Origin: Azolla caroliniana
Lineage: Eukaryota > Plantae > Polypodiophyta
Assembly: GCA_043228905.1 (NCBI GenBank)
Contig: JBHGNT010000010.1
Coordinates: 13,950,001 to 14,014,000 of the forward strand
Length of the DNA stretch: 64,000 nt
Direction: 5' to 3'
Position numbers and translations under genes: made by a program. This document shows, piece after piece, positions 4,045-57,400 of this stretch. A model generated the notes under the pieces. That model made no database searches, was not told the origin of the DNA, and worked only from the letters and a program-made list of their open reading frames with translations. How positions within the stretch are numbered: position 1 is the stretch's first letter; each line of letters opens with the position of its first letter.

Positions 4045-4065
4045 ACCTACCACCACAGTCGTCGT

Positions 4066-5959: not shown

Positions 5960-7194
5960 CTACTTTCCCCATCTTGATAATATCAACAATCCAATGACAG
6001 AGAAACAGAGAGATGCAAATGTTACAACTACAACCAGAAATGCATAAATTTGTTTTGGCAATTTGAGGACTTCCTGTATTCGTTTTAGGCCTCTATCAAT
6101 AAGTGGAGCAAGGGCTGCAGCTCCAGCAACCCGGAACGGTCTCGTGACATTGTTCCCCGTCCACATCAATACCACAATCTGAACATAATAAGTAGAGACA
6201 AATGATGGGTTTATGAGATGGTATCAATAAATCCAACATAATGTGTATTGTGACATAGCTCTAATAAATCTGTGTAGTTAGCTAAAATATAGTAGTATAC
6301 ATGCACTTACTCCAAGTAGAGCCTGAATATTAGCAGCAGGGTTCTTGCCAGTGCTTTTCTCATAACCCAGAAACGCCAACACAAAGAATGTGGTGTAAGT
6401 TATACCATCAAAGAGACCGTAAGCCAGAATTGCTGCCAATCCCAGCTTAGCAACCTGTTCTTTCATCTTTGCAGCATTGCTCTGTATCCACACTGAGAAC
6501 CATTAATTCTACACATTACATACATCTTCACTGCACAACATCCCAAATATGAGCATATATATATACATGCTGGGTGAAATTTCCTACCATTTCAACACAC
6601 ACAGAGAGTACACCTAGTGTCTATATAGATAGATGTGTGTATACACTATTACTCTATGTGGATGCTACTAAAACTCCATTGGTCCTTCTTTTAAGTTTTT
6701 AGAGCAATTTATGTGTGTTTTTCTTCAATGATTCGGTGATTCCTGAACCATATATGCAAGGGTTCTGTGTATTTACACCACATGGATTACATGAAATTTG
6801 TTTTCTTTTGTACATCGAGTGTGAGTGGCGGAGGTGGAGGTGAGAAAAGAAAACCTGAAGCCCATTAACTTTCGTAAAGAAACTTTGGCGTTTCGTCTCC
6901 TGCAGATGTAATCCGAGAGAAGTTGAGGTTGATAAATTAGCATGAGTTTGAGGAAATGAGGGAAAAGAAATTTACCTGATACAAGTCTGGCTGGGTTGGG
7001 GAAATATATTCATCATCAGGTGCAGAGGAGGAGGAGGAAGAAGAAGATGCATATGGCCGAACAGTCAAGCGAGTACCAGGGAGGCGAACAGAGCAACGTC
7101 GATGATGGAGGCAGACTGGCAAGGAGGGATATTGAGGGGTGCGACTGTGTGAATTTGGTGTGTAGGTCAGCACTGGCAGCAGCCCCGTTGCCAT
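5960..7194 (-). CDS. Uncharacterised, probably plastid-targeted membrane protein; exons approx. 7194-6976, 6899-6855, 6481-6311, 6178-5960
   Basis: Ser/Arg/Pro-rich transit-peptide-like N-terminus and canonical GT-AG introns in phase 0. Hydrophobic core KLGLAAILAYGLFDGITYTTFFVLAF...ALLG|IVVLMWTGNNVTRPFRVAGAAALAP. The exon 3 acceptor is uncertain. Confidence 0.85.
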
Positions 7195-8145: not shown

Positions 8146-8334
8146 GTCCACATGACCTTTACTTTAGTTTTCTTTAAATTACTTTAATTAGCCACATGAT
8201 CCTATCATCTGTCCGTCTCGATCATCGCCCATCCAATCCGTCTGGTCCGCGTCCAGCCTCGTCCGATCACCGGTTCTGTCCGATCGCCGATTATCGGATC
8301 CGCCCGGTTTCCGACACCATCCGATTGCAGATTT

Positions 8335-8610
8335 CGCCGATTCCGGTCCTTTTACCAGTCGGTTCCAGATTGCTTTCCGGCCGATTCCAGTTTGCTCACC
8401 GGCCGGTTCCGGATTGCTTACCGACCGGTTCCGGTTTGCTTACCAGCCGGTTCCGGATTGCTTACCGGCCGGTTCCGGATTGTTGTCCGGCTGATTCCGG
8501 TTTGCTTACCGACCGGTTCCGGTTTGCTTTTCGGCCGGTTTCGAATTACTTACCGACCGGTTCTGGTTTGTTTTACGGCCAGTTCCATTTTATTGCCAAT
8601 CGGTTTTTGG
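8335..8610. repeat. 22-bp GC-rich minisatellite inside the Gypsy LTR
   Basis: CCGGCCGGTTCCGGATTGCTTA-type units, about 12 copies. They explain ORFs 8196-8636 and 8392-8676. Confidence 0.9.
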
Positions 8611-14600: not shown

Positions 14601-17600
14601 TCACAGTTTCTTGAGCCTAAGGTTAGCCTCCCAGAAAAATTTGATGGAACGAGGTCGCGTTTCCGAGGGTTCATCAACCAAGTTCGACTTATCATTCGGC
14701 TACAACCTCAACGTTATGGAGATGGTCTTTGACAAGTCGGCCTTGTGGGCACCCTTCTCTCCGGTCCGGCCCAAGCTTGGTTTGCACCATTGGTAGAAAC
14801 CTCGTCACCTCTATTGGAGAACTTTCCCGCCTTCCTCGCCGAGTTAGAGGCCACATTTGGAGAGACGGACCGACGATGTACAACTCTTAACAAGATTTAT
14901 GCACTCGAACAAGGTTCGCGTGCAGCTTCGGTCTATGCTTTAGAATTTCAACAACTAGCATGTGACGTCAATTGGGATGATCAAGCTTTAGCTGATCACT
15001 TTCAACGCGGCCTTCAAAGCAATGTCAAGAATCTTCTCTTAAACTTTCCGAAGCCCACCTCGTTATCCCAAGTGATTTCACAAGCAATCCATTGTGACAA
15101 TCGTCTTTTCGAATTTCGCCAAGAAGAGCGCCGGACTTGGGTTCCACCTCATTCACTTCCACGCCACGCCCCGGTCATACAACCCCAGGCATCCTCACAC
15201 TCGCCTACTTTGGCAGATGCTCCTATCCCCATGGAAATTGATCAAGCCCGATTTTGGCCATTGACTGATGCTGAACGACAATTTCGGCGGGCTAATGGCT
15301 TGTGCATGTATTGTGGCGCCTCCGGTCATGTCGTTCGCCATTGTCCTAGGAGTACTCGCCCACAATTCCATCGAGCTAACGGACCCCAACATCCGGAAAA
15401 CGACATCATTCGATTGCAGTAGGAGCCATGTAACTGGACATCTCCCGTCGCCCACATTCTCTTGGTTCCATTGCCGGACCATCAGGCAATTTCACATTGG
15501 AGGTATGGCTTTCGTTTAACTCTAGTTCCATTCAGTCTGTTGCTTTACTTGATTCTGGGGCATCTTCTTGCTTCATCGACGTCGCATTTGCCCAAGCACA
15601 TGGCGTACCTATCGTTGGCCTCTCAAAACCTATTCCAGTTCAAGCCATCGACGGGTGCGTCCTCTCGTCAGGTGCAATTACTCAAGCTACAATCCCATTA
15701 GGGCTTCGGGTGGGCTCACACCAGGAGGAGCTCGCCTTTTACCTCATCGCATCTCCTCGATATCCGATTGTCTTAGGACTAACGTTGTCATGATATGGCA
15801 AGACTCGAACCCATGACCTTATACTACATGGGTCGAGCTCTTGACCATTAGACTATACATTGTAATGCATAGAATATTATTTTCATTTATGTTTTATTAT
15901 AGAAAATTGATGTATATTCCAGATTTCTCTGGAACATTCTAGAAACTTCAGGAGTATTCCTTAGAACACTATAAAAGGAGGCACAAGGCATTATTTCGAA
16001 CCAAATCGGTTCAACGCCAGTCTTAAGCCTCCTAGCTATTGTACATTTTCTTCACATAATATATATCTTTTCTTATCATCACTCTCTCTCTCTCTCTCGA
16101 TCTCTCTCTCCCTCCCTCTCACTCACTCTTTCCTTCTCTCGAGAGTTCTTCACCTCTCTTAGTACTAATACTTCTTTTAGTACTAATTCCTTCTCTGTCT
16201 TAGTACTATTCCTGACAGTTTGAACCGATTTGCCTACCTTCTATCTCTCTTATTTCCTACTAATATCTTATTCCTCTTTTCTTTCATCCCATGGCCACTG
16301 TTAGCACTTAAGAATATCAATATGTTTTCTCGGAATTTCAATGCTTGAAAGAGAAGTTCCATGCTTTGGAACAAGAAAACCAACGGTTGCTGGGGGATCT
16401 TCAGCAAATCTCCTTAGAAAAGCAGCAAACGCAACAACAACATGGGGAACTTGCGTTACGCGTGCAACAACTCGAAGCAACCATCGTAGCGATGCAACAA
16501 CAAGGGCCCAAAACACAAGGGATTCATAAAGAACCCAAGATTGGCCTTCCCACGAAGTTCGATGGAACGCGATCGCAGTTTAGAGGGTTCCTTAACCAGG
16601 TACGATTAGTTATTCAAATGCATCCTTCCCGGTATCCCACCGATGCATCACGAGTGGGTTTAGTAGGCACTTTGTTAAGTGGCTCAGCGTTGGCATGGTT
16701 CGCTCCACTATTAGAAAAGGAATCCCCGTTACTCAACAATTTTGAAGAGTTTCTAGGTGAGTTTAAAGCATGTTTCGGAGATACTGACAGCATCAGGACC
16801 GTAATCAACAAAATTCGGCGATTACGCCAAGGTGACCGTCCAGCCTCTGCATATGCTGCAGATTTTCACCTACTCGCCGCCGATATCCCTTGGGATGATC
16901 AAGCGTTGATGGAGCAATTCCGTTATGGTTTACGCAACGATGTCAAGGATTTACTCTTGACCTTCCCCGAAGAGCCAAAGTCCTTAGGAGAAGCAATTAG
17001 TCGCGCGGTGAGATGTGACAACCGCCTCTTTGAGCGACGTTCGAAACGACAACTACAGATGCCGAGGGCAAGATCAGAGCCCACCTACGCCTCAGTGGTA
17101 GCAAGACCTTTTCCGAGGGAGTCATATAATGCTCCTCCAACGAATACTCCGACTCCGATGGAGATTGACACTACACGTCGTTGAGGGCCATTATCCGAAG
17201 AAGAAAAGCAGTGACGCCGTACAAATCGACTATGTCTTTACTGCGGTGGACCAGGACATATTGCAATAAATTGCCCCCATAGGCCAAGAAGACAGGTAAA
17301 CCAAATAGTCGCTAGTTCTAATTGTACTAAACCCGAGCCTATTTCAGTAGGGATATCTGATAGTCCTAATAGTACGAATAGCCCAGATCTAGCAAACAGA
17401 TTTGATGTCCTTAGTCAGTTAGAAGAAGAGTTAAACGACTAAGTCCAGCCAAAATAGGAGCCGTTTGGTTGGACAACCCTAGATCTGTGCAACCCATTAG
17501 TGGTTCCATTCCCTCTAAGCAAGTTAGTGATGTGTTCGTAGCCCAAGTAATAGTTAGTACTAAAAGTACCCCTCCAGTACATGTCCTAGCACCCCTAGAT

Positions 17601-23685: not shown

Positions 23686-26502
23686 TTGGAAAATGGTTTC
23701 ATCCGGCATTCGAAATCTCCAGCCGGCGCGCCCATTTTCTTCGTCAAGAAAAAGGATGGATCGCTTCGTCTTGTTGTAGATTATCGTGACCTGAATAAGG
23801 TTACAATCAGGAATATGTATGCTCTTCCCCTTATCTCAAGTCTTTTAGAACGGATCAATGGTGCCAGGTTCTTCACGAAGATCGACTTACGGGGAGCATA
23901 TAACCTTGTACGGATCCGACCAGGAGACGAATGGAAGACCGCGTTTCGCACCAGATATGGGCACTTCGAGTATACGGTCATGCCGTTCGGCCTCACTAAT
24001 GCACCAACAGTCTTCCAGCACATGGCTAATGATATATTCCGAGATCTATTGGATGATTGTTTGATCATCTATTTGGATGATCTACTGGTTTATTCAAAGA
24101 CCCAAGAAGAACATGATTCTCATGTACTATTAGTACTAAAACGACTTCGAGAACATGGTCTGTATGCAAAGCTGGAAAAATGTAGTTTCGGGTGCAACCA
24201 AGTGGAATTTCTCGGCTACATCATTTCGTCAGAAGGCATCTCCATGGACCCAGCTAAGGTCAAAACGGTGGTAGAATGGCAGACTCCACGTTCGGTGCAG
24301 GATGTGCAATGCTTCCTAGGCTTTGCCAATTTTTACCGGAAGTTCATACAAGATTACTCAAAGATCGTTCTACCTCTCACACAACTTACCAGGAAGGGAC
24401 AACCGTTCATTTGGTCTGAAGAAATGGACGTGCCTTTCGAGAGTCTTAAAAAGGCATTTACATCGGCTCCAATTCTAGCTCATGTCGATCCGGAAAAACC
24501 ATTTATTATCGAAGCTGACGCATCGGATTTTGCATTGGGGAGCATTCTGTCACAACAGGGGAATGATGAGAAGCTACATCCTGTGGCTTTTCACTCCCGC
24601 AAGTTTGACGCCACCGAAATCAACTACGAAATTCATGATAAGGAGCTATTGGCAATAGTGGATTCTTTTATGCAATGGAGGCATTTTTTGGAGGGATCCT
24701 CTCATCCGGTCACCGTATTTAGTGACCACAAGAACCTTGCCTACTTTCAGGATGCTCGTGTGTTGAATCGACGTCAAGCTCGGTGGGCCCACTTCCTCAC
24801 GCGTTTCAACTTCAAAATTACATATCGTCCGGGGAAGCACCAAGGGAAGGCAGATGCATTATCACGACGTTCGTATCTAGCACCCCGTCCTGGCGAGCCA
24901 GCTTTCGATAACCAAAAACAAGTCATCTTGGGACCGGCACGACTAGAAGCAACAAAGATCTTTGACATGCCCATGGATTCCCGCGTTATCGATACCATAT
25001 GCGAAGACTTGAAGACAGATGCATTCGCCCAAGCTATACTAGCACAAATTGATCCCTCTCGAGCCTCGTGTTCACAATCGCAACCACCAGGTACGGACTA
25101 TCGGCAATTCAAATACCATGATGGATTACTCTTCTTTAAAGAACTTTTGTATCTTCCTAATGGTTTTTGCCGCCTTCAAGTAGTACAAAACTGTCATGAC
25201 ACATATACAACTGGGCATTTTGGTAGTACTAAAACACTACATTTAGTACAACGATCATTCTGGTGGCCCTGTATGCAACAATTTGTCGAGGATTTTGTTC
25301 GGATTTGTGATACATGCTGCAGAGCAAAAATGCCAAGGCATCATCCATATGGTTTATTAGAACCATTACCAATTCCAAGCAAGCTGTGGCAATCCATTGC
25401 TCTAGACTTCATCACAGATCTTCCAGTCTCTAAGGGGTTCAATGCGATTCTAACGGTGGTCGATCGATACACAAAGATGGCTCATTTCTTGCCATGTACT
25501 AAGGAGATCTCCAGTGAAGACACTGCCGAAATTGTCATGCGTGAAGTATGTCGGCATCATGGACTTCCCGATAGTATCATCAGCGACCGTGGACCCCAGT
25601 TCGTGTCAAAATTCTGGAAGCACCTTTTTAACATGCTCAAGGTCACTTGTAACCTCTCCTCCAGCTACCACCCACAAACCGACGGCCAAGCTGAACGAAC
25701 CAATCAAACGCTGGAGCAGTATCTGGGGTGCTTTCTCAGCTATCATCAGGATGACTGGGCAGATATTCTCCACTTCGCCGAATTTGCCTATAACAACTCT
25801 ATCCACGCAACCATGAAAGTTACGCCATTTTATGCTTATACAGGATGTCACCCCCGGTGGTGTGTACTTAAAACCCCAGAGGTGTCCACAAATCCTTGCG
25901 CAGAGGATCGTTTGGAGAGGTTACGCAAGATACAAGCGGATTTATCTACTCATCTCCAACAAGCTCAACAAACACACAAGGTTTATGCGGATCGTCATCG
26001 ACTCCCATCTAGTTTTAACATTGGAGATCGGGTATGGCTACTCCGACGACACATCAGCACTACTCGCCCATGCGAGAAGTTGGATTATCGACGATTAGGT
26101 CCTTTCCGTATTATCGGAAAGATTAATGATGTCTCTTTTTGTCTTGATCTACCTCCACAACTTCGGATACATCCGGTGTTTCATAGTTCTCTCCTCGAAC
26201 CCTATCAAGAAAGCACCATCCTAGGACGTATTACACAACCTCCACCCCCGATCGAGCTTGAAGATGGTCCTGAGTACGAAGTTGCCACCATCCTTGATTC
26301 CAAGCTTGTTCGCAACAAGCTCTACTATCTAGTCGACTGGCTAGGATATAGTCCCAGCGAGCGTACTTGGGAACCGATAGAGAATGTCACCAATGCTCGT
26401 GTTCTTCTTGAAGACTTCCATCGTCAATATCCAGCCAAACCGGGTCCTCAATCCAAAACGACTCGTTACACTAGTCGTTTTAAAGGGGGGATAGTGTCAT
26501 GA
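23686..26502 (+). CDS. Pol region of element C (RT-RNaseH-integrase-chromodomain), 938-aa open stretch
   Basis: YLDD, DASDFALG, HHCC zinc finger, DDE core, GPF motif and chromodomain YEV..IL..YYLVDWLGY..TWEP. In-frame stops upstream make the element defective. Confidence 0.9.
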   Translation: MENGFIRHSKSPAGAPIFFVKKKDGSLRLVVDYRDLNKVTIRNMYALPLISSLLERINGARFFTKIDLRGAYNLVRIRPGDEWKTAFRTRYGHFEYTVMPFGLTNAPTVFQHMANDIFRDLLDDCLIIYLDDLLVYSKTQEEHDSHVLLVLKRLREHGLYAKLEKCSFGCNQVEFLGYIISSEGISMDPAKVKTVVEWQTPRSVQDVQCFLGFANFYRKFIQDYSKIVLPLTQLTRKGQPFIWSEEMDVPFESLKKAFTSAPILAHVDPEKPFIIEADASDFALGSILSQQGNDEKLHPVAFHSRKFDATEINYEIHDKELLAIVDSFMQWRHFLEGSSHPVTVFSDHKNLAYFQDARVLNRRQARWAHFLTRFNFKITYRPGKHQGKADALSRRSYLAPRPGEPAFDNQKQVILGPARLEATKIFDMPMDSRVIDTICEDLKTDAFAQAILAQIDPSRASCSQSQPPGTDYRQFKYHDGLLFFKELLYLPNGFCRLQVVQNCHDTYTTGHFGSTKTLHLVQRSFWWPCMQQFVEDFVRICDTCCRAKMPRHHPYGLLEPLPIPSKLWQSIALDFITDLPVSKGFNAILTVVDRYTKMAHFLPCTKEISSEDTAEIVMREVCRHHGLPDSIISDRGPQFVSKFWKHLFNMLKVTCNLSSSYHPQTDGQAERTNQTLEQYLGCFLSYHQDDWADILHFAEFAYNNSIHATMKVTPFYAYTGCHPRWCVLKTPEVSTNPCAEDRLERLRKIQADLSTHLQQAQQTHKVYADRHRLPSSFNIGDRVWLLRRHISTTRPCEKLDYRRLGPFRIIGKINDVSFCLDLPPQLRIHPVFHSSLLEPYQESTILGRITQPPPPIELEDGPEYEVATILDSKLVRNKLYYLVDWLGYSPSERTWEPIENVTNARVLLEDFHRQYPAKPGPQSKTTRYTSRFKGGIVS

Positions 26503-29500
26503 TATGGCAAGACTCGAACCCATGACCTTATACTACATGGGTCGAGCTCTTGACCATTAGACTATACATTGTAATACATAGAATATTATTTTCATTTATG
26601 TTTTATTATAGAAAATTGATGTATATTCTAGATTTCTCTGGAACATTCTAGAAACTTCAGGAGTATTCCTTAGAACACTATAAAAGGAGGCACAAGGCAT
26701 TATTTCGAACCAAATCGGTTCAACGCCAGTCTAGTACAATCTAGTACGCATCAAACCGGGGGATGAATGGAAAACCGCATTTCGAACACGGTATGGGCAT
26801 TTCGAATACAAGGTAATGCCTTTTGGTCTTACTAATGCTCCCGTAGTTTTTCAACATATGATGAACGATATATTTCGGGAATATCTTTATCTTTTTGTTG
26901 TCATTTACCTCGATGATATTCTCATTTTCTCGCCAAACATGGAGGAGCACACTCGCCAAGTCCGATTAGTTCTTGCCAAACTTCGCGAGCATGGCCTTTA
27001 TGCCAAAGGCGAGAAATGCGAGTTCGACCGTACCTCGATCGAATTTCTGGGCTACATCATCTCGCCCACTGGCATCACCATGGATATGAAGAAGGTCTCT
27101 GTCATTTAGGCGTGGGCGACTCCAAGGCAACTTAAAGATGTGCAATCCTTCCTCGGCTTCGCGAATTTTTACCGTCGCTTCAATAAGGGGTTTTCCACCC
27201 TAGCACAACCTCTTATCACTCTCACCCATAAAGGCACTCCATTTTTATGGACCTCGGAGGCGCAAAATGCGTTCGACTCACTCAAACACGCATTCATCAC
27301 TGCCCCGGTGCTGCTACATGCCGACCCCACAAAACCCTTCCAAGTCGAAACCGATGCCTCTGACTTTGCCATTGGCACCATCTTATCCCAGGCAGATGAC
27401 AACAACCTAATGCACCCAGTGGCTTACTATTCCCGAAAATTTACGGCATCCGAAATCAATTATCCCATTTACGACAAGGAGCTTGCTGCTATCATTGTTG
27501 CCTTTGAAGAATGGCGACCCTACTTGGCCGGCGCACAACATCGTGTCCAAGTAGTCGTTGATCATAAAAATTTAGTTTATTTTTCCACCACTCGTACTTT
27601 GAATCAAAGGCAGGCCCGTTGGTCGACATTTCTCGCCGATTACGATTTTGAGATCGTATTTCGACCTAGTGGCCAACATGGGAAGGTTGATGCCCTTTCT
27701 CGCCGAGCTGACCTTGCACTCTGCCCTGGGGATGCTGCTTATGCTCAACAATCTAGACGTTTGTTGAAACCCGACCAATTGCATCTTTTTGCCACTTGTA
27801 TGTTGCAGGATGATTCTTTACTCCAACAAATCACTGATGCATCCAAGACCGATGTGTTCGCCAACGAGATTCGAGATAGTCTACAAAACCCCTCCAAGGT
27901 GACCAAAAGGAAGGATCTTGACACCTTCACCATACAAGAGGGTTTGTTGTTAAGAGATCATCTCTTATACGTCCAAGAGGGCCCATGTTGCACCCGGGTG
28001 TTGCGGGAATGCCACGATGACCCACTTGCAGGTCATTTCGGGGTCGCGAAAACCCTCGAGCTAATCTCTCGGGGGTATTGGTGGCCACAACCATGGAAGT
28101 TGATCAAAGAATACATAAAGAGTTGTGAGGTTTGTGCTCGCTCCAAAACCATTCATCATCGGCCATACGGCTTACTACATCCGCTTCCATGTCCTCGTCG
28201 TCCTTGGGCCTCTATCTCTATGGACCTGATAACTGATCTACCCTTGGTCAATAACTATGACTCGGTGTTGGTCGTTGTCGATCAGTTTACGAAGATGGCT
28301 CACTTCACTCCATGCTCCAAAACCATTTCCGAAGAAGGAATGGTGCATCTACTACTCAACAATGTGGTATGCTTGCATGGACTACCCGATGATGTCATCT
28401 CGGATCGCGGACCCCAGTTTGTCTCTCACTTTTGGCAGCGCCTGCTACAAACTTTAGGTATCTTTGTCAAGTTGTCCTCTGCTTATCACCCCCAAATTGA
28501 CAGGCAAACGGAGCGTGTCAACCAAATCCTTGAGCAGTATCTTCGATGCTCGGTTAGTTACCAACAAGGTGATTGGGTCAACTTACTTTCGCTCGTGGAA
28601 TTCGCCTATAATAATTCTCTCCATGCATCGACTAGCGTCACTCCCTTCTTTGCCAACTATGGTTTACATCCTCGCTTCAACATTTCCCTTCCTACCACTT
28701 CCGTGAACCCTTCGGCGGAGGATCATGCCCGCATTTTGGAAGAACTACATCATGATTTATCCTTCGAGCTTAGTCTTGCTAGTGAACGATACAAGAAGCA
28801 GGCTGATCGCCATTGATCTTCCACTCCACACTTTGTCATTGGAGACATGGTCTGGTTGTTACGTTGACACATCTCTACTACTCCTCCATGTGCGAAACTT
28901 GATTACAAGAAGTTGGGACCATTCCGTATCATCGAGTGCATCAATCCCGTCGCCTTCCGGCTCGCCCTTCGATCCCACTTCCGGATTCACGATGTTTTTC
29001 ATGTCTCCCTCCTCGAACCCCATTATGTTTCACAACTCCCAGGACGTCAGGCCCCACCACCACCACTTGTGCAATTGACGACAGGTGAGGAATACGAGGT
29101 CGACCAAATCCTTGACTCGCATTGGCACCATCGACACTTGCAATACCTCGTCCTATGGAGGGGTTACCCCATGTCTGAGGCCACGTGGGAACCATCGGCA
29201 AATTTACAAAATGCCCCAGAGGTCGTCCAAGATTTTCATCACCGATATCCCCACAAACCAGCGGCCGATATGGGAAGGCGACGTAGGAGGGGGGATAATG
29301 TCAAGATTCGAACTCTTGACACGACCATGTTATAATCTAGTATTATGAGTTAACCAAGATATCTAGTACATAGTTATGTATGTAATTAATCCTTATTATT
29401 TTGCTAGCATCATGTGCATAATTGCTGCCTTGTAGTATTTACACTTGGCACATGCATACATACCTACATGCTCTATTGTAGATTCACATGCGTGCAACAA

Positions 29501-30612
29501 TTATGCATGCCATGTAGTATAAATAGAGGAGTTCACCTTGAAGGAATTCAAGGTGAACAACACCAGTTATGGAGTCTTTCCTTTAATACTATCTTCTTTC
29601 TTGTCCATTTGGTTATCTTCTTGCTTGTCTCTTGACCTTATGATCCGTGACAGGCCTTAAGTTGATGGTAGTCGAGGTTGACTAGGGAGTCGGTTCCGAC
29701 TTCTGTTGCTTCCAGTCTTCAATTGTCTTGTCTTCTAGAAAAACTACATCCCGACTTCTCACTACCTTCTTGTCGACTAGGTCCCATAGCCTGTAGCCGA
29801 ACTCATCTTCTGAGTATCCCATGAATATGCATGCTTTCGACTTGCTGTCGAGCTTTGATCTCTGATCCTTTGGTACATGCATATACGCTAAACATCCAAA
29901 CACCCTCAGGTGTTGGTAGGAGACATCCTTCCCTGTCCACATCCTTTGTGGGACATCACCCTTTAATGGCACTGAGGGAGACCTGTTGATCAGATAAACA
30001 GTTGTGTAGAACGCCTCAACCCAATAGGATTTTGGCAATTTCGCATGAGCGAGCATGCTCCTTACTCTCTCCATGATCGTTCGATTCATCCTCTCTACAA
30101 GCTCGTTCAACTCTGGGGTCTTTGGTACTGTGTATTTGATTCGAATACCTTGGCATTTGCAGTATTCTTCGAACTGCCCTTTGTATTCGCCACTGTTGTT
30201 GGTTCGGACAACCTTCAGTTTTTGACCCGACTCTCTTTCAGTTCTTGCCTGGAATTCCTTGAAAACCGACAGTACTTGATCCTTTGACTTCAGTACGAAG
30301 GCCCATGTTTTCCGATTGTAGTTGTCAATAAACGTTACAAAGTACTGTCCTCCTCGATGCGATGGAGGATCCACATAGCACACATCCATGTGCACTAGTT
30401 CCAGTGCAGCTTCTCTTCTCCTCGGTGGTCTCGTGTGGAATGTCGTCCTGTTCTACTTTTCGGCTAAGCAGTCGACACACTTCTCCAGGTGAACTCCCTT
30501 GATTTCTGGTAGAAGTTTCTGGTCGGCTAACAGGTGCATTCCCTTCTCACTCATGTGGCCTAGCCTCTTATGCCATATCTCCCCAGCCGAGTCGGCTGCC
30601 ATGTTTACTTAC

Positions 30613-44700: not shown

Positions 44701-46499
44701 ATCGAATCCTTCATCTTCTTCTTGAACCTCTTCGAGTTCACTAGCCTCATCCTTCGGAATTGGTTCTTTGCCGGGAGTTGGAGTCAGTAGGGAGTACCAT
44801 GATGCCGACTCATCAAACTCAAAATCTTGACTTACTCGTACTTGTTTAGTCTGGGGGTTATAACACTTATACCCCTTTTGTTCATGCGAGTAGTTGACGA
44901 GTATGCACTTCTCTGATCTCGGATCCTGCTTCCTCCGCTTCTCATCCGGTACCAACACATATGCTATGCTACCGAATATCCGAAGGTGTCTCAAATTTTG
45001 CTTCCGCCCAAAATCAACTCATGTGCTGACACCTCGTTCCCGATCCCATTTTGGATGTAGACGGCCTCCATACTGCCTCAGCCCAGTAGAATTTGGGCAT
45101 GCTCTTCTCCTCCAACATTGCGCTTGCCGTGTCGACAATCGATCAGTTCTTTCTTTCGGCCACACCGTTTTGTTCCGGTGTATATCCGCAGCTGAATTCT
45201 CTCTGAATTCCTTTTTGCTGCAGATGACTATTGAACTGGCCGAAAAAGTATTCTTTTCCACCATCTGACCGCAGTCACTTTATCTTCCTCTCCGTTTTGC
45301 TTTCGACTATGCTTTGAAGGTTCTGAAAACAGTCGAAGACTTCTCTTTTCTTCTCGATGAGGTAGATCCACGTGTGCTGGCTGTAGTTGTCGATGAAGGA
45401 GATGAAATATCGACTCCCACCAAGACTAACATTTTGTGCCAGTCCCCATACATCCGAATGGATTAGATTGAGCTTGTTACGGCTCCAGTTTCGTTCGGTG
45501 GGGAATGGAAGCCGGTGTTGCTTCCCAAGTTGGCAGGCTTCACATATTTGGGCCTTCCGGCCAATCCGAACACAACTTGTTTCGATTGCAGATCTTGAAG
45601 CCTCTAAGAGTTGAGGTGGCCAATCCGCTTATGCCAGAGATCGATGTCCAATTCAATCTTCTGTCCTTTGGAAAACATGGCGGTGACGACGTCATTTGTG
45701 TGGAGGATGAACATTCTCCCTTCCCTGCACCCTTGCTCGATTATCCGGCCTTCTTCCTCGATGAAGCACCCAAGCTGTGTAAACCATACCTACATTCCCT
45801 GGTCGACGATTTGTCCGACTGACACCAGGTCCTTTGTGATTGTCGGAACGTGTAGTATGTTCATCAGCTTTCCTTTTTTTCCAACATGGCTTAAAGGGAC
45901 TTCTCCGACATGCACAATCGGGTGAGGGGTGCCGTCTCCGGTGTTGTTCGGTCGACAATAACTATTGTCGACACAGTATAGGATGCACGTTGCTCACCAA
46001 ACGTTCTATCAATGAATTGTGGTTTAGACGAATAGATACTAAACTGGTTGTAAACTTATCAATGTTTAGTAGGCATCGAGATCGCTATTTACGTAATAAG
46101 TTATAACAGAAAGGAAATTGATTGACAGAGTGTTTTGTACACAGAGTTTTCCTAAACTAACTTTATATTACTAAATAAAACGATGTCTCTTTACACTGCC
46201 TTCGGTTCCTTTTATAGGAAACCAGAAGGACTTCCTCATCAAGAAAACATATTGCCAAACATGGCAAGAACTACAAAATCTTTAACTAACTTATAATTTC
46301 AATTTTACTTCGGCCATATGCTGACTCATCGATCCTCTATACTGATCCGACTCCGACTCCGACTCCGAACCTTCTTCATTTCCGACTCCGACACTTCCCC
46401 ACTTGTTCGGGTAACACTTGGCATGTCCGTGGGCCAGGTCTTTGTCCGGCGAACCCCACGGCATCCTTCTATTCCTGTTGTTCCAAAGGAAGGTCCTCA

Positions 46500-48948
46500 T
46501 CTAATTCATCCTCTGCGTCATCCTGTAGAATATCAAACAATGAAGGTTCAGGTTGCTGCATGTCTTCTTCATCTTCGTCTTCGGATTCTGTAAACGTGTT
46601 TGTATCTGCGGTCGACGGTCTTGGTTTCTCTATTGTTGGCGCTTCAAGTCCTGGGGTCTGATCTCACCTTTTGGATTCAAGGTTATCTAGCTGGACAGCT
46701 GTGTCCACATCATGTTTGTCAAATTCTTGCATAATTCGATTAACTTCCTCTCGGTGACACGCTGCTATCTCATACAAGTCTTTAGCAATATCCTCCTGAA
46801 CGGTTGATATTGCTTCTTCCATCGTTTTGAAGAAACCTTGGCCATGAGCCTTCCTATTCTCTCTGTTAGCCCGTAACAATTGAAGTTCGGCTGCTTGTGC
46901 CGACCAGGTTTTCTAGCCCTTATCAATGGACTCATTCACCATTTTCAAGGTGTTAAGTTTATGGCATGGTAGTATATCTCGAATTCATTCCTCGGTTATA
47001 CTTGACTGAAACTGGGTTGCTGCCAATGTTCTTCGTAAATCATCAATTTGAGCATTATTTTTTGCTTCTGTTTGCAACAGCTTGTTTTGCGCGAGTAATA
47101 GGTCAAGTCGCCTTCCGACACAACTTCCACTTCTGAACACCTTGTTTCCAAAGTTGCCCTAGCTGCTTCCCATTCTTCCTACTGTTTATTATATTTTTCG
47201 TTTATTTCATTTAGCAAGGTGTCCTTTCCGACTATCTCTTCTGCAAAATATTCTGTTTGTACATTTACATACTCTTCAAGCTCCTCCACTTGCTCAACGT
47301 TTTGGCACGTGGCTTCTTGTTGCTGTGCTAACTTTCGGCGTAGCTGTTGAATTAATTCGTCCTTTGCATCGAGCCATTTTCCGATTTCTGTCTTTGCAAG
47401 TTGTATCCTATCCTCTAGTTTCTTGGATCGGATTTCAGTTTTTTCGGCTCTAGCTTCCGCCGCCTTGAATGCTGCTTCTACCTGTTGTAGCTTTTGTTGC
47501 CATTCTTGATCAGCCTCTAAAGGTCTGTTGGATTCCTTCTGCAACAGTTCTTCCCTTGTTTTCTGCAGTTGTTCTTCACTTTGTCGGAGTTGTTCCGTCA
47601 ACTGCAGGTTTTCGACATTCATGTTTGTACATTGTGCGTTTAGTTCTTCCGACGCCATTGATGATTTTTTGTATAAATCAGCCATATCTTTGGTTGCTCG
47701 ACTGGCCTTTTCATATTTTCGATGTACTTCCACCAAGGCCTCATGTAATGGTGGCATGTGGATAGCCTCGCCTTTATTTCTTGCACTACGTTGTCGACCG
47801 ATTCAATCCAATTCGTGTTGTTCTTCCGGTTCGACAACTCCACTTAATGACTTTTGGATCATTATCTGATCTTGGTGTTCCTGTGCCATTCTTTTTTATA
47901 CCTCTTGTAATCTTCGTGCTAACCATTCTACTAGCTCGTACGATGTGCCAAATTGTAGAATAGCTGCCAGTTCATGTGCTATTGGAGGAATGTCGGCAAA
48001 GCCTACTACTTCTCGCACTGTTGTTATTGACGATTGCCCTTTTTGAACTTTGGTCGTGTCATTAGGATTGACACGAGGTATTTGTGCAGTCTATGTGGCT
48101 TGATCGTCGATTCTTTGTTTCTTCTGTGCAGGTTCCTCTTGCCGAGGCTGAAAAAATCGTTGGCATTTTTGTTGAATCATCTTTCTTGGTCGTTGTCTCG
48201 ACTGCTCAGCTCCAACAATTGTTGATTTTTGTTGTGATTTTGACTGTAGTGGTGTAGTATTCCTAGGGTTCGATTGTTGTCCAAATTTTGGCTGCGTGGT
48301 CTGTTGTTTTTGAGGTTGTGGTGAGGCCGGTTGCTGTTCAGGTTCTGATTGAGTGGTGTCGACATGCGTCGAGTCTTCTTCCTGCCACTTTTCTCGTTGC
48401 ACTTGTCTTCGGGGTCGGGGTGCTTGTGGCCATGGCGGCCTTTGTTCTGGCGGTTGGCTTTCTGATCTCTGAGATGGAAACAATACTAACAACCACCGAG
48501 CAAATATTGGTTTCATGGGTTTCCCTTGCTGCACCCCATACAGTTGCTCTCGGAGAGCGTTTGCTGACAACAACCCCCAATCAAAAATTTCACCCTCATA
48601 TGTGGCGATTATGAATCCGGCTCGCTTCTTGGGCATACAATAAAACCTGGGACTAACAAACCCTACTTCCAACAAAAATTTTGCAACTTCATGAAAACAT
48701 TCATTTGCGCCGCCTTGCATTTGAAAAGCCTTCGTAGAGGGAGAATATTCCCCAAAATACGACCTAAGCACATCCTTGTCCATTTTCTGGACAACATTGA
48801 GACCTTCTCTTTTTAATTCCAAAACAAAACATGCCTTTTTATTGGTGATTTTGGATACGTCGATTTGCTGCAGAATTTCTGCAGCATGAAGGTGCGGTTC
48901 TGCCTTTGCAACTTTGATGAACCCTTGCAGATTTTTGTTGGCGAGCCA
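46500..48948 (-). pseudogene. Fragmented additional (env-like position) ORF of element K: globular N-terminal domain, Gln/Pro linker, long coiled coil
   Basis: Collinear ORF pieces 48822-48091, 47757-47179 and 46879-46664 lie between the integrase and the 3' LTR on the pol strand. Confidence 0.7.
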
Positions 48949-49720
48949 TTATCGCACGTTGTCAAAAACATAAATCACCATATTCTCTTCATCGACTGAT
49001 GATTCAAAGTTCTGTGTTGGAGATAAATCAAAGCAGAGTTTTAGGTTAGGGCGAGAGAGAGCAAAAGCACAAAATCTTTCAGCACGTATACGCTTCTGTT
49101 TCTGTGGTGAAACAAACTTTGCAGAAATAGGTTTTAAGGAAATAATGCGTTGCATGATGCCTAGGGAATAGAAAAGATACTATTAATGAAAAAGTTAAGA
49201 ATAGCAATAATGAGTGTTAGTTGCATGTCTCCACTAGTCCTTTAATTATAGTCTGTCAGACTAAGTCTTTTCCAAGATTTTCCTTTCGACAGTTAGTTGT
49301 TTTGGCCAAGATTTTCTATAGTTAGTTAGTTGTTTTTATTTTTATTTTTATTTTTTTATGTGTGTGACGTATGCCACCTCACTTTGCATCAGTTTTGAGT
49401 TGAAATGGGTTTCCCGGCATTGGCCCGTGATACGGTTTAAGTTGGAAACCATTTACCCATTTTGGTAAAATGTCGCATGATAATGTACCCACTTGATATG
49501 TCCCATTCTTGCTGTTGACAATCCACACTAGTCCTGTCCACCGAAATTGTAATTTTCCCGACATTGCCCCCATCTTAGTTTGGAATACTAGTACCGGTTT
49601 GCCGATTTCGAACTGTATTTCGTTCTAACGTCTGTGATGATTTACAAATGCCTTTGTTTGTCTTTGCTTGTGTTCCAAAGCTAACATGGCATGTATTATT
49701 TCTTCCTTTAACAGTAATAA

Positions 49721-51449
49721 TGTCAAGATTTGAACTCTTGACATAACCATGTTGTAATCGAGTGTTATGTGTTAACCACACATCTAGCATATAATCATGT
49801 ATATACTTCCTCATTGTAGGTTTTAGCTAGAATCATGTGCATAATTTCTCCCTTGTATTATTAACACTTGGCACATGCATGCGTACCTACTGCCTACATG
49901 CTCTATTGTATCACATGCGTGCAACAGGTATGCATGCCACTTAGTATAAATAGTTGAGTTCACCTTGAAGGAATTCAAGGTGAACAATGCCAGTCATGGT
50001 CATATCAATCTAGTATTCCCATTTCACCCATCCTCTCTCCTTGATCTTCATCTCTATCTTTATGCTCTTGTGTCATTCTGTCATCGCTCCGTCATAGCCT
50101 CATCATCTGTGCTCCGTCTTAGTCCGCACTTGGTGTGTCCGTGACAGTTTGTTCACCTTCCAACTAGAAGCATCACCCGTCTCCGTGATCGCCTTTGCTT
50201 CTAGAGTTACCATCTTCACCGTACCATCATCAACATCGCTTCATTTCCTATCTTCCTCGCCATTTCTATCTCCTAGTTTCTTCTCATAATTTTTATTGGC
50301 TTTTAGTTCTCCTCATCATTGTCTCTATTTTTTAGTTTCTTTCCCGTTCGTGTTCGTGTTCTAGTTCCCGATGAGGGCCGCACAAGGCCGCTCACTCCCA
50401 TTGGTGTTCGTGTTCCAGTTCCCGGTGAGGGCCGCATGGTCGCTCATGCCCATTGCGGCTCATGTTCCAGTTCTCGGTGAGGACCACACATGGTCACTCA
50501 CTCCAACTATTGTTTGTGTTCCGGATCCCGGTGAGGACCGACATGGTTCCTCATGCCCGTTGTTGCTCATGTTCTAGTTCCCGATGAGGACCACACATGG
50601 TCGATTAATCCCGTTTGTGTTCATGTTCCTGCTGAGGGCCACATGGTCGCTCACTCGTTCGTGTTCCATTTCTCGGTGAGGACAACATGGTTGCTCACGC
50701 CCGTTGGTGTTCGTGTTCCAACTCTCAACGAGGACCGTTCCAGTTCCCGACAATGACCCCACATGGTTACTCATGCCCCTTGGTGTTCATGCTCCCCGTG
50801 AGGACTGCACATGGTCGCTCACACCCGTTGATATTTGTGTTCCAGTTCTAGGCGAGGACCACACCTGGTCACTCATGCCCGTTGGTGTTAAATACCTCGT
50901 CTTGTGGAAGGGTTACTCCTTGTCTAGAATTTACAAAATACTTTTGAGGTGATCTAAGATTTTCATCAACAATATCCCCCAAAGTCGACAAACAATTTGG
51001 GATAATGTCAAGATTCGAACTCTTGACATAACCATGTTGTAATCGAGTGTTATGTGTTAACCACGCATCTAGCATATAATCATGTATATACTTCCTCATT
51101 GTAGGTTTTAGCTAGCATCATGTGCATAATTTCTTCCTTGTATTATTAACACTTGGCACATGCATGCGTACCTACTGTCTACATGCTCTATTGTATCACA
51201 TGCGTGCAACAGGTATGCATGCCACTTAGTATAAATAGTTGAGTTCACCTTGAAGGAATTCAAGGTCAACAACGCTAGTCATGGACATATCAATCTAGTA
51301 TTCCCATTTCACCCATCCTCTCTCCTTGATCTTCATCTCTATCTTTATGCTCTTGTGTCATTTCCCGTCTTAAGTTCCTCATGTCATCGCTCCGTCATCG
51401 CTTCATCATCCGTGCTCCGTCTTAGTCTGCGCTTGGTGTGTCCGTGACA
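49721..51449 (+). mobile_element. Non-autonomous (TRIM-like) derivative related to family B; LTRs 49721-50146 and 51006-51449
   Basis: TSD AATAA on both sides. The LTRs share U3/R with B and use the same PBS TTGTTCACCTT. The 860-bp interior has no gag/pol except a chromodomain scrap (KYLVLWKGY). Confidence 0.93.
50345..50890. repeat. ~55-57-bp tandem repeat inside the non-autonomous element
   Basis: GTTGGTGTTCGTGTTCCAGTTCCCGGTGAGGACCACACATGGTCGCTCATGCCC-type units, about 10 copies. Confidence 0.88.
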
Positions 51450-54400
51450 AATAAGGCTTCTTTCCGAATTTGTTCTGACTGCAGTTCATTTAATTTTTCA
51501 GTTGCTTGTATTCGGAGTGACGGAATCTGAAATTCTACTGGCATTATGGCTTCTAATCCGAAAGCCATTCGGAAAGGAGTTGATTTAATAGATGTTTTAT
51601 AAGACGTTTGATATGCCCATAAAGCACTCTAAAGCTTTTGATCCCAATTTGTATGATTTTCATTGACTATCTTTTTTAGTAATTTCTACAGTGTTTTATT
51701 TGTCGATTCTGCTAATCCATTTGCTTGTGGATAGTACGGAGTGCTCTTTTTATGAACAACCGCGTAATATGTGGATAGCTCATGTACAATTTTATTAATA
51801 AAATGGGTACCTTGATTGCTTACTAATTCTATCGGACACCCAAATCGACACCATATATTTTCGTACAAAATTTTTGCTGCTGATGCTGTCGTATTGTCCC
51901 TGAGAGTTTTAGCTTCTACCCACTTTGTACAGTAATCTGTGGCCACTATAATGTAACGATTACCTGTGTGTATGGCTGCTGGTTTAAATGGACCGACAAA
52001 ATCCAATCCCCATTTTTGAAATGGCTCCAAAGGCAAAACAGGTTGAAAAGGCATTCTGTCCTTTTCTGTGGGTTGCCCCAGTCTTTGACATAAATCACAT
52101 TTTCGACAATAGTCCACTGCATCCTTCATTACTTTCGGCCACCATAGGCCACTGTTCCATATTTTTCGGGCTGTAGTTTCTCCGGCATAATGACCACCTC
52201 CAATACCACAATGAGATTCTCGCAGAATTATCGATTTCTCAAATTGTCGTACTGTCCTTCTCCAAATTCCGTCTACACCTTTATGATAGAGAGTATCATT
52301 CAAAAAACAGAAATTCCGACTACGAACAACTAACCTTTTCCTTTCATCCGCCGATAGATGCTCGAGTGGTAGCCTTGTCGTAAGAAAGATTGTCATCTCA
52401 GAGATCCAAGCATCATTGCCTTCCTCATTTATTTCTTGTACCCATACTGCTTCCACTGGAAAGAGTTGGCCATCCGGAAAATCATCTGGCACACCTATAC
52501 CTTCTTCTCCCGACTCTAGTCGGCTAAGATAATCAGCAATCGCATGTTGTGATCCTGGTCGATGTAAAATGTCAAACTCGAATTCTTGCAATATCGTGCT
52601 AGTTTACCGGTTAATTCTTGTTTAGAGACCAAATAGAGAAGAGCAGAATGATCGACATGGAATGTAAATTTCTTGCCCAAAAGGTAGTAGCGAAATTGAT
52701 TGATACTATAAATCATTCCTAACGCTTCCCTCTCAGTTGTTGAATAATTTCTTTCCACTATCGAGAGTTTCCGACTAGCGTAATACACTGTTCTATACTA
52801 GTTTGGTTCGGATAACTGCATGAGTGCACTACCGATTGCTATATCAGATGCATCAACGAACACATGGAAGGGTTTATTCCAGTAAGGTGGTTGAACCATC
52901 AGAACTTTAGATAGCATTTTCTTGAGACACTCATACGCATCCTGTTCCACACTTGTCCATTGAAAAGGAACTTTATGCACCGTTGTGTGTAGAGGAATGG
53001 CCACATCCGCAAGATATCTAATCATCCTATTATGCCATCTAATCTGTCCCAAGAACCAACTAAGGCCCTTATCTGGGTCAACTGCAATTCCTTCTTGGCC
53101 GACAATATGGCCTAATAGTGTCCCATTAGTAAGCCGGACGCGCATTTTGCCGGATTCAAACTAAGCCGACCTTTCCGACATTGCTCCAAACATAGTTGTA
53201 AATGTTCGAAATGTTCCACTTTCCCGCTATACACGGCGAAATCATCCAGGAAAACTTGCATAAATGCAGGAATGTATTCTGCAAAGATTTCCTGTATAAC
53301 CCTTTGAAATGTGGTTTTTAATCCGAACATCATTACTACTGCCACAAATACTCCCCATTTAGTAACGAGGTTGTCTTCTCTTGATCCTTCGGATGCATCC
53401 TTACCTGATTATATCCACTAAACCCATCCAGGAAACTATATATTTCATGACCAACGACTGCATCTAAATTCCCATCCGTAAACGGTAATGGAAATGTGTT
53501 CGTTACTGTTGCTACATTTAGATTCCGATAGTCGACACATACTCGAATTTTTCCATTCTTTTTCAGAACAACTACAATCGGACTTAGCCATGTAGCTTTT
53601 TTTTACCGGTCGAATAAACCCTACCTTCAGGAGTTTATCTATTTCCTCTTTAACTTTAATTGCATAATTAGGATTTAAACGATACCTACGTTGTTGAACC
53701 GGTTTCACATCTTTCTATAAGTTAATTTGGTGTTGGCAAAAACCTAGATCTAGCCCTTTCATGTCTTCAAAAGACCACGCAAAAACATCTTTATATTGCT
53801 TTAGTAACCCAAGTAACCTTTGTTTATCCGCCATGCTCATATCTTTAGCCACCAACACTGTTTTTGGTTCACACTCCTTATCATCTTCTGCCAAATTTAC
53901 TTCCTCCAATGCCGAAGCCTGAACCTGTTGAGATACCTTCATTTCTCTTTCGGTAGCTTCCTGCTGCATTCGGATTTCATTCATTGTTTGCTCATCTAAT
54001 GGTAATTCCTCTTGTGCATCCATATACGGTGTCAAGGTTTGTAATATGTCTACTTCGAACAAAGGGATAATTGGGTTATCATTAAAATAATGATTTTCTT
54101 CGACCTCATCTAGTCCTTCCATCATATTTACGGCCTCTGCATGAATTGGCAAACATTGTTTACTCGTCGTAATCTTATTATGAATAGACACCCTGATTTT
54201 CGTCTTGCCTTTCCGGAATGTTAATAAATTTTGATTCCAGTTTTGCTTAATATTAGTAGTTTTTAACCATGGTCTACCTAATAGCAAAGGATATGCTCCA
54301 GAAGCTTCCAAATGAAGCACCACTGCTGATATTTGAAAAGTGTGACCTCCTAATACGACATTCAACTGCCACAGTAACCCAATTGGTCATACCATACTAG

Positions 54401-57400
54401 TATAAGTCATCCTTAGCCAAAATGGACATGCTTCCCATTTGGTAATGCCAAGCTTATCACAAGTAGTTCTATTAATTACATTCACGCCTGAGCCACCATC
54501 GACAATAGCACCTTCTATTTCTTGCCCATGGATTATTACTTTAATAGAAGGATTTTGCTCATCCATAATTGAAGGATTATTACTCGGCTGATTATAGTGA
54601 ATGTCTACATGTTCCGTCCCTTTTTGGGCAATTAAAGTTGCCACTTTCTTTGTGAACCTAGGAACTAATTTGAGTAATCCCGTCAAAGGTAATGATACTT
54701 GGCAATCCGCCAAGATTTTCCAAGTTTCTGCTTGTTCTGGTACGACCATAACTTCGGCCAATTCATTAGCTTGATTAATCTCATTATCTTGGAGCATTCG
54801 GGACACATTGTTTTTATTCACTTCTTCTACCCATTCCTTGGTTGCTTTCCGAACAGCTTCCTGAATTTCCCACTCTCATTGTTTACTTTTACTTCTGGTG
54901 GTCACTTGCTGAATTTCCAGCATTACCATATGCACAGCCGGTGTTTTTCCTTTTCCTTTAGACGGACATTGATTTGCATAATGGCCCTCCTGTCGGCAAA
55001 TATAGCAGGTAGGAACAAATGTTCCACTCCCTTCGCCTTGCGCAAACCGATGATTTCCATCTTCATTAGAATATGAGGGTTGTTGAAATTGTCGTGACAC
55101 TTTTTGCTTATAGAATTTTTTATTCTTATAGCAATTTTGTTTAAACCGTCCTCCATTGTTTTGTTGATAGTCGTTATCTTGTGCCATCGAAAAATCTTGA
55201 TTCTATTGATAATTATTTTGTCGAGCGGTTTCTTGGTACCCATTATTGAATATATGTCGATTATTCTGGTACCCATTTTCCGGAAAAATTTGCCATATTG
55301 GTGTCGCTGTTTTGTTAAGAAGATTATATTCACATTGCTCGACCGAATGAAGTTTAGAATGACATATTGTGCAATGTGTTCGCAAACTACATTCTATTGC
55401 CGAATGCACAGTATTCAAACATGTCGTACATTGAATTGCTTGCCAAAACTGCAACTCCTCCCGAGTCGGCAACGTATGATGTAATGACGACATATCCATA
55501 CTCTCTATATTTTTCGGATTCCAGCCCATAGCGATTGCTTTATCAATCACTTGCTCGATCGTTTGATTCCAGAAATCGAACACTACTAATTTTGTTTGTA
55601 ATGGTTCACGAATTGCTTCAAGGAATATGTATCCTTCAATTCGTTGTCCGGAATAGACCTGGAAATCTGGAGTTGTAAATTCTAAAAATGGATGACAAAT
55701 TGAGACACCGTTTCATGTGGCTCTTGATACAACGCATAAAATTGCACTATCAGATCCTTTTGAGGAATCTGACGATGAAATAATTGCAGAAATTTGGTAT
55801 TTAATTGTTCAAATGTTTCGAACGCACGAAAACCATTTTGCGCAAACCAATTAGCGGACTGACCATCTAATGACAAAACAAACTTAGCAATTTTAGATTT
55901 ATCTTCGGCTACTACTGATAGCCTCTGAGCTCCATGGTTAATTTCCCATGTTGTCAAGAAATCCCTAACATACGCTTCTGCATCATCACCTTCCCGAAAT
56001 TTAGAATACGGGTAAGGCATATTGTCTTCACTCCAGATATCATAAAATGATATCTCCTCCTCCTGATTCTCGTATGACTGATTATCAGTTAAATCAGGGA
56101 GCGCAGACCACCTTCTACTTGTTTCTGGCTGTAACTCTATAGCCGAATCTTTTTCTAGTGTCTTCGTAATCGAACGTATACGAGGATGTTTACAACTGAC
56201 TAGTGTATCTGGACCAGACGACATCCATTCGACTTGTTCTCTGCTAGCTACAGATGTAACCAGGTGTGCCAAAATTATACTGTGTTGTTCGGTCGACAAT
56301 AACTATTGTCGACACAGTATAGGATGAACGTTGCTCACCAAACATTCTATCAATGAATTGTGGTTTAGACGAATAGATACTAAACTGGTTGTAAACTTAT
56401 CGATGTTCAGTAGGCATTGAGATCGCTATTTATGTAATAAGTTATAACAGAAAGGAAACAGATTGACAGAGCGTTTCATACACAGAATTTTCCTAAACTA
56501 ACTTTATATTACTAAATAAAATGATGTCTCTTTACACTGCCTTCAATTCCTTTTATAGGCAACCAGAAGGACTTCCTCATCAAGAAAACATATTGCCAAA
56601 CATGGCAAGAACTACAAAATCTTTAACTAACTTATAATTTCAATTTTACTTCGGCCATATGTTGACTCATCGATCCTCTATACCGATCCGAATCCGACTC
56701 CGAGTCCAAACCTTCTTCATTTCCGACTCCGACACTTCCCCACTTGTCCGGGTAACATCTGATTTCGACGATTCTCGGTTGTTCCGGTTTCTCCAAAAAC
56801 CAGAACCACTCTTCGTGGCTCGTCATGTGGTTTGACACTCTGGAATCAACATACCATACTTCCTCCGATCCGGAAGTGGTCTTCTTCATTGAGTTCACCT
56901 TGTGCTTCATCATGAAGGTTGGCCCTTTTCCGGTCTTCTCGGTTCCGGATCCTTCCGATCGTTCTATGTAGTGCAAGCTTTGTCGGTTCCCTTGTCCGGC
57001 CTTGCCAGATCTGGATTTATCTGAATCGGCATGCTTCTTCCAGCACTCGCTCTCTCTGTGGCTTTTTTTGCCACAGTACTAACATTTCGTATCAATTTTC
57101 GACTGTCAGTTTCTGTCTCTGACTTGACTCCCCCTACTTGTGGAGGGTCCGGAATTGCTGTCAGCATCGTCTCTATGCCGGCCGCCTCCATTGCGTGCCG
57201 ACCCACCTCGTCCTCCACGCCCACCGGGTCAATCCGCCTCCGTGTACAACATCCGGTTGAGTGGTGCTCGACCCACTCGCGTGGTTCTCTTCGACCATCA
57301 ATATGGATTGTAAATCGAAGAAGGACGGTGGCTTCTCCCGGGTGCAAATTGTCGTCCGGATTGGCCTGTACCGTTGTGCTAGACCACCAAGACAGATCTG

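Follow-up and report, generated by a model that had tools for sequence, protein, structure and literature searches.

Priming of the plus strand from a polypurine tract (PPT) is regarded as a step shared by retroviruses and LTR retrotransposons. The locus described here raises the question of how a retrotransposon without such a tract starts its second DNA strand. The window, the whole 64,000-nt stretch of DNA analyzed, contains a Ty3/gypsy element (K) on the minus strand, probably of fern origin, whose sense strand enters the 3' LTR as CCCACGGACATGCCA-AG-TGTTACC, with the purine tract absent. From the sequence, the LTRs, and the strand of gag, RT, RNase H, and integrase, we confirmed the claim of the initial annotation that K is a minus-strand element reading CCCACGGACATGCCA-AG-TG without a purine run. 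On sequence evidence, we lean toward the view that in this PPT-less Ty3/gypsy lineage a second tRNA-Arg primes plus-strand DNA, in addition to the tRNA-Arg that primes the minus strand.

Anatomy and coding content of element K

K has the ends of a Ty3/gypsy element: two LTRs with TG...CA termini and a target-site duplication. Its main features are as follows.

45937..45941, plus strand, and 56758-56762: target-site duplication of K (left copy TCCGG, right copy TCTGA)
45942..46416, minus strand: 3' LTR of K (TGTTA...CAACA, 475 nt; 453 of 475 positions identical with the 5' LTR)
46469..49155, minus strand: extra ORF after pol (sense orientation; carries stops and a frameshift here; ends about 50 nt before the LTR)
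49382..56020, minus strand: gag-pol of K (gag, CCHC knuckle, protease-like region, RT, RNase H, integrase; decayed and broken by a nested element)
49721..51449, plus strand: nested non-coding LTR element in the integrase gene of K (AATAA target duplication; tandem-repeat interior)
56283..56757, minus strand: 5' LTR of K (475 nt; TATA-like CCTATAAAAGG inside)

The insertion site is a copia-type pol region. Empty-site copia contigs pass from a single TCCGG directly to the right flank of K, with loose ends at 45942; the target duplication is thus 5 bp and the LTR limits are correct. A plus-strand orientation of K was considered and rejected because the TATA-like box, gag-pol, and the conserved 5' primer binding site (PBS) all lie on the minus strand.

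Pfam matches place gag, the CCHC knuckle, RT, RNase H, and integrase in Ty3/gypsy order, all on the minus strand. No Pfam match to a chromodomain was obtained in the integrase tail (49382-49624), although another element of the window does give one. Likewise, searches of the K pol pieces and P0001 for an additional RNase H with Pfam returned only RT_RNaseH families. The closest named integrases are from Adiantum (about 45-59%). The extra ORF has 41 homologues, of which five are intact at 883-898 aa, giving a length of about 890 aa in relatives. These proteins have a conserved domain at the N terminus as well as an acidic tail and a long coiled coil; none of the Pfam families scored above cut-off, and an Atlas search gave only leads under 0.9.

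A tRNA-like module in place of the PPT

No PPT was identified at the 3' junction of K, where the nearest purine run of at least 8 nt lies 145 nt upstream, within the ORF. An ordinary G-rich PPT does occur 2-3 nt before the 3' LTR of three other LTR elements in the window. On the plus strand beyond the LTR edge of K is CT (46417-46418), then TGGCATGTCCGTGGG (46419-46433). The PBS-shaped motif that had been proposed 2 nt from the LTR on the opposite strand is therefore present, and its spacing is fixed. We also found the tRNA-like element that had been noted here, but it is larger than first described, reaching 46459 with a hairpin and a piece of the T arm.

46417..46418, minus strand: AG dinucleotide between CCA and the LTR (AG in 23 of 23 distinct junctions)
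46419..46433, minus strand: T-stem/acceptor strand, tRNA-Arg-like, ending in CCA (1 nt shorter than the tRNA; PBS-like on the opposite strand)
46434..46449, minus strand: 16-nt spacer hairpin, in the place of three T-loop nt of the tRNA
46450..46459, minus strand: T-arm 5' strand plus TTCG (GTGGGTTCG in the family; one extra G in the K copy; 7-9 of 9 positions matching in 23 of 23 distinct junctions)

The module of about 42 nt thus consists of the T-arm strand (GTGGGTTCG), the 16-nt hairpin, the T-stem/acceptor strand to CCA, and then AG, as in a relative (L004) that reads GTGGGTTCG-CCGGGCAAGGCCCTGG-CCCACGGGCGTGCCA-AG-TG. We infer that the AG is a 2-nt end extension that would be removed by integrase. 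The module of K in the window is a decayed copy. Contigs from four public DNA runs, representing four studies and possibly including the source of the window itself, have C at 46424 in most cases (83-100% of depth) and C at 46426 in many (9-89%). Contig depth in the four runs is highest over 46409-46436, and at 46417-46423 no alternative letter reaches 2%.

Relatives were retrieved with the extra-ORF protein rather than with the motif. The search yielded 40 loci (58-88% amino acid identity in the best segment), all from a single series of metagenome assemblies. The module is present in 25 of 25 loci that reach the LTR and a PPT in 0 of 25; the conservation that the initial annotation had proposed as a check thus held, and the ordinary purine tract that it had named as contrary evidence did not appear. 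Fifteen of the 40 loci were not counted: 12 stop before the module, two (L001 and L037) stop inside it with a matching start, and in L002 unrelated sequence intervenes. L003 retains the module and AG with a short deletion at the LTR start; it is one of the 25 but was left out of the 24 that entered the column statistics. Those 24 loci and the window provide 23 distinct junctions after merging of L004/L020 and of L010/L018, which do not differ in this region.

Over the 23 distinct junctions, purine runs in the last 20 nt before the LTR reach at most 3-5 nt. The CCA block has a mean column agreement of 0.92, the T-arm block 0.88, and the hairpin 0.87, versus 0.55 just upstream of the module and 0.50 at LTR positions 12-29. 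Similarly, mean pairwise identity (120 pairs, 16 loci) is 0.87 for the module, 0.60 for the first 200 nt of the LTR, and 0.58 for the last 200 nt of the ORF region. A candidate purine patch upstream, considered as a relict PPT, is not conserved across the 23 junctions. Given its conservation in 25 of 25 related junctions, the tRNA-like motif is beyond chance. The 3' module is real, family-wide, and under selection, and the K family has lost its PPT.

Among viral contigs, alignment with the extra ORF and a search with the long motif each returned 0 loci. The short motif gave 14 matches, all without the T-arm block and without an RT or integrase match, and integrase alignment gave two distant loci at 28%.

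Similarity to tRNA-Arg and the 5' primer binding site

To define the tRNA, the module was converted into a search pattern in which the hairpin is swapped for three free bases and one free base is added. Across 185,579 prokaryotic genomes this pattern matched 31 loci, against about one expected from a hand estimate with equal base frequencies. ARAGORN called a tRNA-Arg at 25 of the 31 matches, a tRNA-Val at one, and a tRNA-Asp at one; four had no call there. A bacterial tRNA-Arg(TCT) served as proxy in the pairing analyses. It may differ from the tRNA of the host, and as it was chosen with an element-derived pattern, the duplex scan described below is partly circular. We take a plant tRNA-Arg(UCU) to have the same 3' end as these bacterial tRNAs. 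ARAGORN detected no tRNA genes in the window, searches of paper text for plant tRNA-Arg or PBS strings returned only unrelated primer matches, and Rfam gave three weak matches on eight loci, none of them on the module.

The window copy pairs with the proxy in a manner that is only moderately unusual taken alone (13 of 500 shuffles pair equally well); for L004 the count is 0 of 500. The 3' site also has the geometry of a tRNA PBS, that is, a complement starting with TGG near the CA of the LTR, on the minus strand, with 1 nt missing relative to the proxy. The initial annotation had compared the site with a tRNA-Arg 3' end, allowing G-U pairs and a gap. The match stands, but the G-U pairs are largely unnecessary because most contigs have C at 46424 and many at 46426.

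At the other end of K, two further features were recognized.

56259..56271, minus strand: 5' PBS of K (TGGCACACCTGGT; TGGCAYGCCYGGT in five relatives, with a sixth contig ending after TGGCAC)
56272..56282, minus strand: spacer between the 5' LTR and the PBS (11 nt; predicted by folding to pair with U5)

The initial annotation had correctly placed TGGCACACCTGGT at 56271-56259, but the distance from the LTR is 11 nt rather than 2. The spacer is 11 nt in the window and in six of six relatives that show the junction (L004, L012, L013, L023, L024, and L038), and it would leave a long end extension for trimming. The PBS is of the tRNA-Arg type in five of the six relatives whose assembly runs through the LTR into the 5' region. 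In L013, a single case from a collapsed assembly, it is the exact complement of the proxy tRNA end (17 of 17 nt) and is followed by a small hairpin and a complement of the T arm. The L013 5' PBS thus has the same split design, and at 5' PBSs priming by a tRNA is well established. In K itself (56244-56258, minus strand) and in L012, L023, L024, and L038, a small conserved hairpin and then GAAC directly follow the 13-nt 5' PBS, which is possibly a reduced form of the split design.

Predicted structure and pairing

The structure named above was scored in an alignment of 22 mutually related rows, separately from RNAalifold. In the sense RNA, 88.8% of its cells are paired. For the spacer hairpin the value is 90.8%, and at one pair 11 of the 22 rows have G-C and eight have A-U, a clear compensatory change. 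No compensatory change was found in the five tRNA-matching stem pairs in these rows. Two outer pairs, whose 5' side is unlike the tRNA, are each broken in five of 22 rows. RNAalifold, given the same rows, chose a different and weak structure in which the module pairs with the LTR start; only the inner hairpin core is common to both.

We also cofolded the last 30 nt of the proxy with the minus-strand site, using RNA-RNA energies throughout in place of RNA-DNA. All nine 3' sites (9/9) form two helices around the hairpin, a three-way junction in which one base of the tRNA bulges out and the T-loop triplet is partly or entirely unpaired. This shape is also predicted for the L013 5' PBS; in the remaining five 5' PBSs, pairing is confined to the first 12-13 nt. 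Among 4308 windows covering both strands of K, the 3' site is the best for pairing with the tRNA (-37.4 versus a mean of -15.2, sd 4.4). Wobble-compatible changes comprise 23 G>A and nine C>T on 10 G and eight C sites, in related rows, and CpG partners are without clear asymmetry.

Proposed mechanism of plus-strand priming

The absence of a PPT, and the presence in its place of a conserved hairpin-split tRNA-Arg end, suggest that a host tRNA likely starts the second strand too. We consider it reasonably probable that this plant lineage without a PPT starts both strands from host tRNA-Arg, by way of a mirror-image hairpin-split PBS on its own cDNA. Specifically, the complement of the module on the minus strand is a predicted tRNA-Arg binding site, with two blocks around a small hairpin, and we infer priming by the tRNA at this 3' site.

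In the proposed scheme, the minus strand would be primed conventionally by tRNA-Arg at the 5' PBS. RT would then copy through U3, and clearance of the RNA by RNase H would expose the second site on the minus DNA. A second tRNA-Arg, or its 3' fragment, could anneal there by its last 16 nt, with one nt bulged. Nine nt of the T-arm 5' side would pair as well, leaving three T-loop nt, including A58, unpaired opposite the hairpin. A58 of tRNAs is usually methylated. Extension of the CCA by RT would write AG-TG, starting where a PPT primer would end and producing an ordinary 2-nt end extension for trimming by integrase. The tRNA would finally be removed by RNase H; speculatively, early cleavage by this activity may be hindered by the bulge and the junction.

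We count in favor of priming by tRNA-Arg in trans the module in 25 of 25 loci and the PPT in none, the conservation peak, the tRNA-Arg matches, the split PBS of L013, and the nine of nine cofolds. Several observations fit it less well. The aligned modules are one nt short of the tRNA, which is odd if they were optimized only for pairing, and the full split design occurs in only one of six folded 5' PBSs. The excess of wobble-compatible changes is weak. A tRNA/DNA hybrid is normally a substrate for RNase H, according to the available part of the source (PMC5371799). Lastly, the module folds on itself in the sense RNA, as would be expected if K supplied its own primer.

Alternative explanations

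Such a primer in cis is the foremost alternative, though we think it unlikely. Here the module of K's own RNA, resembling a T arm, would resist RNase H, be cut between CCA and AG, and prime as a non-purine substitute for the PPT. The geometry is identical, the primer would already be annealed, like a PPT, and the sense RNA has the hairpin fold; moreover, the one-nt gap relative to the tRNA would come without cost. PPT sequences are also reported to vary among elements in the accessible portion of one source (PMC5371799). However, it is not readily explained why the tRNA sequence is preserved in the unpaired TTCG and the acceptor strand while the outer pairs of the self-hairpin break, nor why the same split design recurs in the opposite sense at the L013 5' PBS. 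The hairpin-split T-arm part favors a tRNA in trans over a self-mimic.

Rather improbable, in our estimate, is a role of the module as RNA, such as pairing with the 5' PBS that draws the two RNA ends together, or a tRNA-like processing or packaging signal, with the plus strand primed elsewhere, either from a purine-rich patch 45-60 nt upstream or from internal tracts. The module and the 5' PBS are complementary over 11 nt, and purine runs of 3-9 nt occur at -62 to -43 and of 11-16 nt inside K. Yet the upstream patch is poorly conserved (0.55 versus 0.92 for the CCA block) and overlaps the last ORF codons, and at the gap position the 5' PBSs match the tRNA rather than the module. The fixed CCA-AG-TG register would also be left without explanation.

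It is very doubtful that tRNA-Arg primes instead on an antisense RNA begun in the 3' LTR, with the resulting plus strong-stop DNA then annealing to the minus strand. That strand does present textbook PBS geometry (CA, 2 nt, TGG), and an RNA-RNA duplex would escape RNase H, but both RNAs must be packaged together, and an antisense transcript is not known here. A non-functional relic of one old insertion, derived from a tRNA or a PBS, would fit the single origin of all copies, but it is largely refuted, and we give it almost no weight, as the module is conserved far above both flanks, contains a compensatory pair, and has no PPT left beside it.

Priming by tRNA-Arg in trans would have consequences beyond K. 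If a tRNA primes on DNA, the RT of K would have to cope with a kind of RNA/DNA primer destroyed by related enzymes, and tRNA fragments would gain a second target in the element. Under any of the leading explanations, a many-copy family without a PPT implies that the plus-strand priming step is replaceable. Such elements could be overlooked, or annotated in reverse, by tools that search for a PPT or infer orientation from the PBS.

Other features of the window

The nested element at 49721-51449 has TTGTTCACCTT 2 nt after its 5' LTR, an exact 11-nt complement of the LTR about 30 nt after the TATA box, and likely uses self-priming of the Tf1/Tcn1 type. A related element is bounded by LTRs at 14002-14355 and 29299-29652. 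Another Ty3/gypsy-type pol, unrelated and with RT, RNase H, and integrase, occupies 8900-13200 on the minus strand, with a 22-nt tandem array after it (about 8290-8610). A chromodomain-bearing element is represented at 15786-16023 and 26495-26732; the repeat match ends ...GTCT in both copies, so the LTR end may be non-canonical or lie elsewhere. Also encoded is an intronless 410-aa frame with an SRF-type (MADS) domain (2836-4065, minus strand). A host exon at 6311-6481 has its best matches in ferns, namely Adiantum capillus-veneris (95%), A. nelumboides (91%), and Ceratopteris (89%), with Sphagnum at 82% (57 aa only).

Comparison with known systems

Taken together, the available portions of six sources describe plus strands primed from a PPT and split PBSs for the minus strand (PMC6317226, PMC1142308, PMC5371799, PMC11963269, PMC7197481, bioRxiv 10.64898/2026.03.20.713144). 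A PPT adjoining the 3' LTR is the usual arrangement, found in "most" elements according to the accessible text of one of them (PMC6317226). A literature search that covered subscription journals thinly, with supplementary element lists outside its scope, found no description of a missing PPT or a second tRNA site.

K belongs to an Athila-like but unplaced Ty3/gypsy lineage, compared here with Athila by described features. In the source portions at hand, the Athila group (non-chromovirus|OTA|Athila, including Diaspora and Calypso) shares with K the Ty3/gypsy order and the lack of a chromodomain and an additional RNase H. It also shares a 5-bp target-site duplication, a spacer between LTR and PBS, and, by position, an extra 3' ORF (PMC6317226, PMC1142308, bioRxiv 10.64898/2026.03.20.713144). 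As described in those portions, the spacer is 3-6 nt in Brassicaceae ATHILA and 5 nt in Diaspora and Calypso, versus 11 nt in K; the LTRs are about 1.5-2.5 kb, versus 475 nt; and in Athila elements the 3' junction includes a conserved PPT and the PBS is of the tRNA-Asp/Asn type, whereas K has no PPT and a tRNA-Arg PBS. Athila ORF-1 occurs in a minority of Athila elements, and the extra ORF of K has neither a Pfam family nor an Atlas lead that reaches 0.9.

In the Tat clade, as in K, tRNA-Arg is a common PBS (TatIII 64%, Ogre 89%, Retand 30%; PMC6317226 Additional file 5). However, Tat elements are defined by the additional RNase H that K is without, and the parts of the sources available describe no replacement of the PPT in them. 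Phygy and Selgy have a 4-bp target-site duplication, no extra ORF, and a tRNA-Trp or tRNA-Ala PBS, in contrast to the 5-bp duplication, extra ORF, and Arg-type PBS of K. Chromoviruses carry a chromodomain after integrase, and none was detected in K by Pfam.

Known variations in priming concern the minus-strand primer, within the source text available. Tf1/Tcn1 self-priming and half-tRNA priming, like the scheme proposed for K, depart from standard LTR-element priming (PMC6317226, PMC5371799), but there it is the minus-strand primer that is changed, and the available text describes no replacement of the plus-strand primer. The closest parallel in design is with the bipartite PBS of Ty1 and Ty3, where, in the portion of the source available, the tRNA is bound in two blocks that include the T arm, separated in Ty1 by a small loop (PMC5371799). 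In Ty1 and Ty3, according to the same text, the two blocks are parts of the genomic RNA used to prime the minus strand, with a PPT as the start of the plus strand. In K, by contrast, the second site complements the tRNA solely as minus-strand sequence, and it stands at the position of the PPT.
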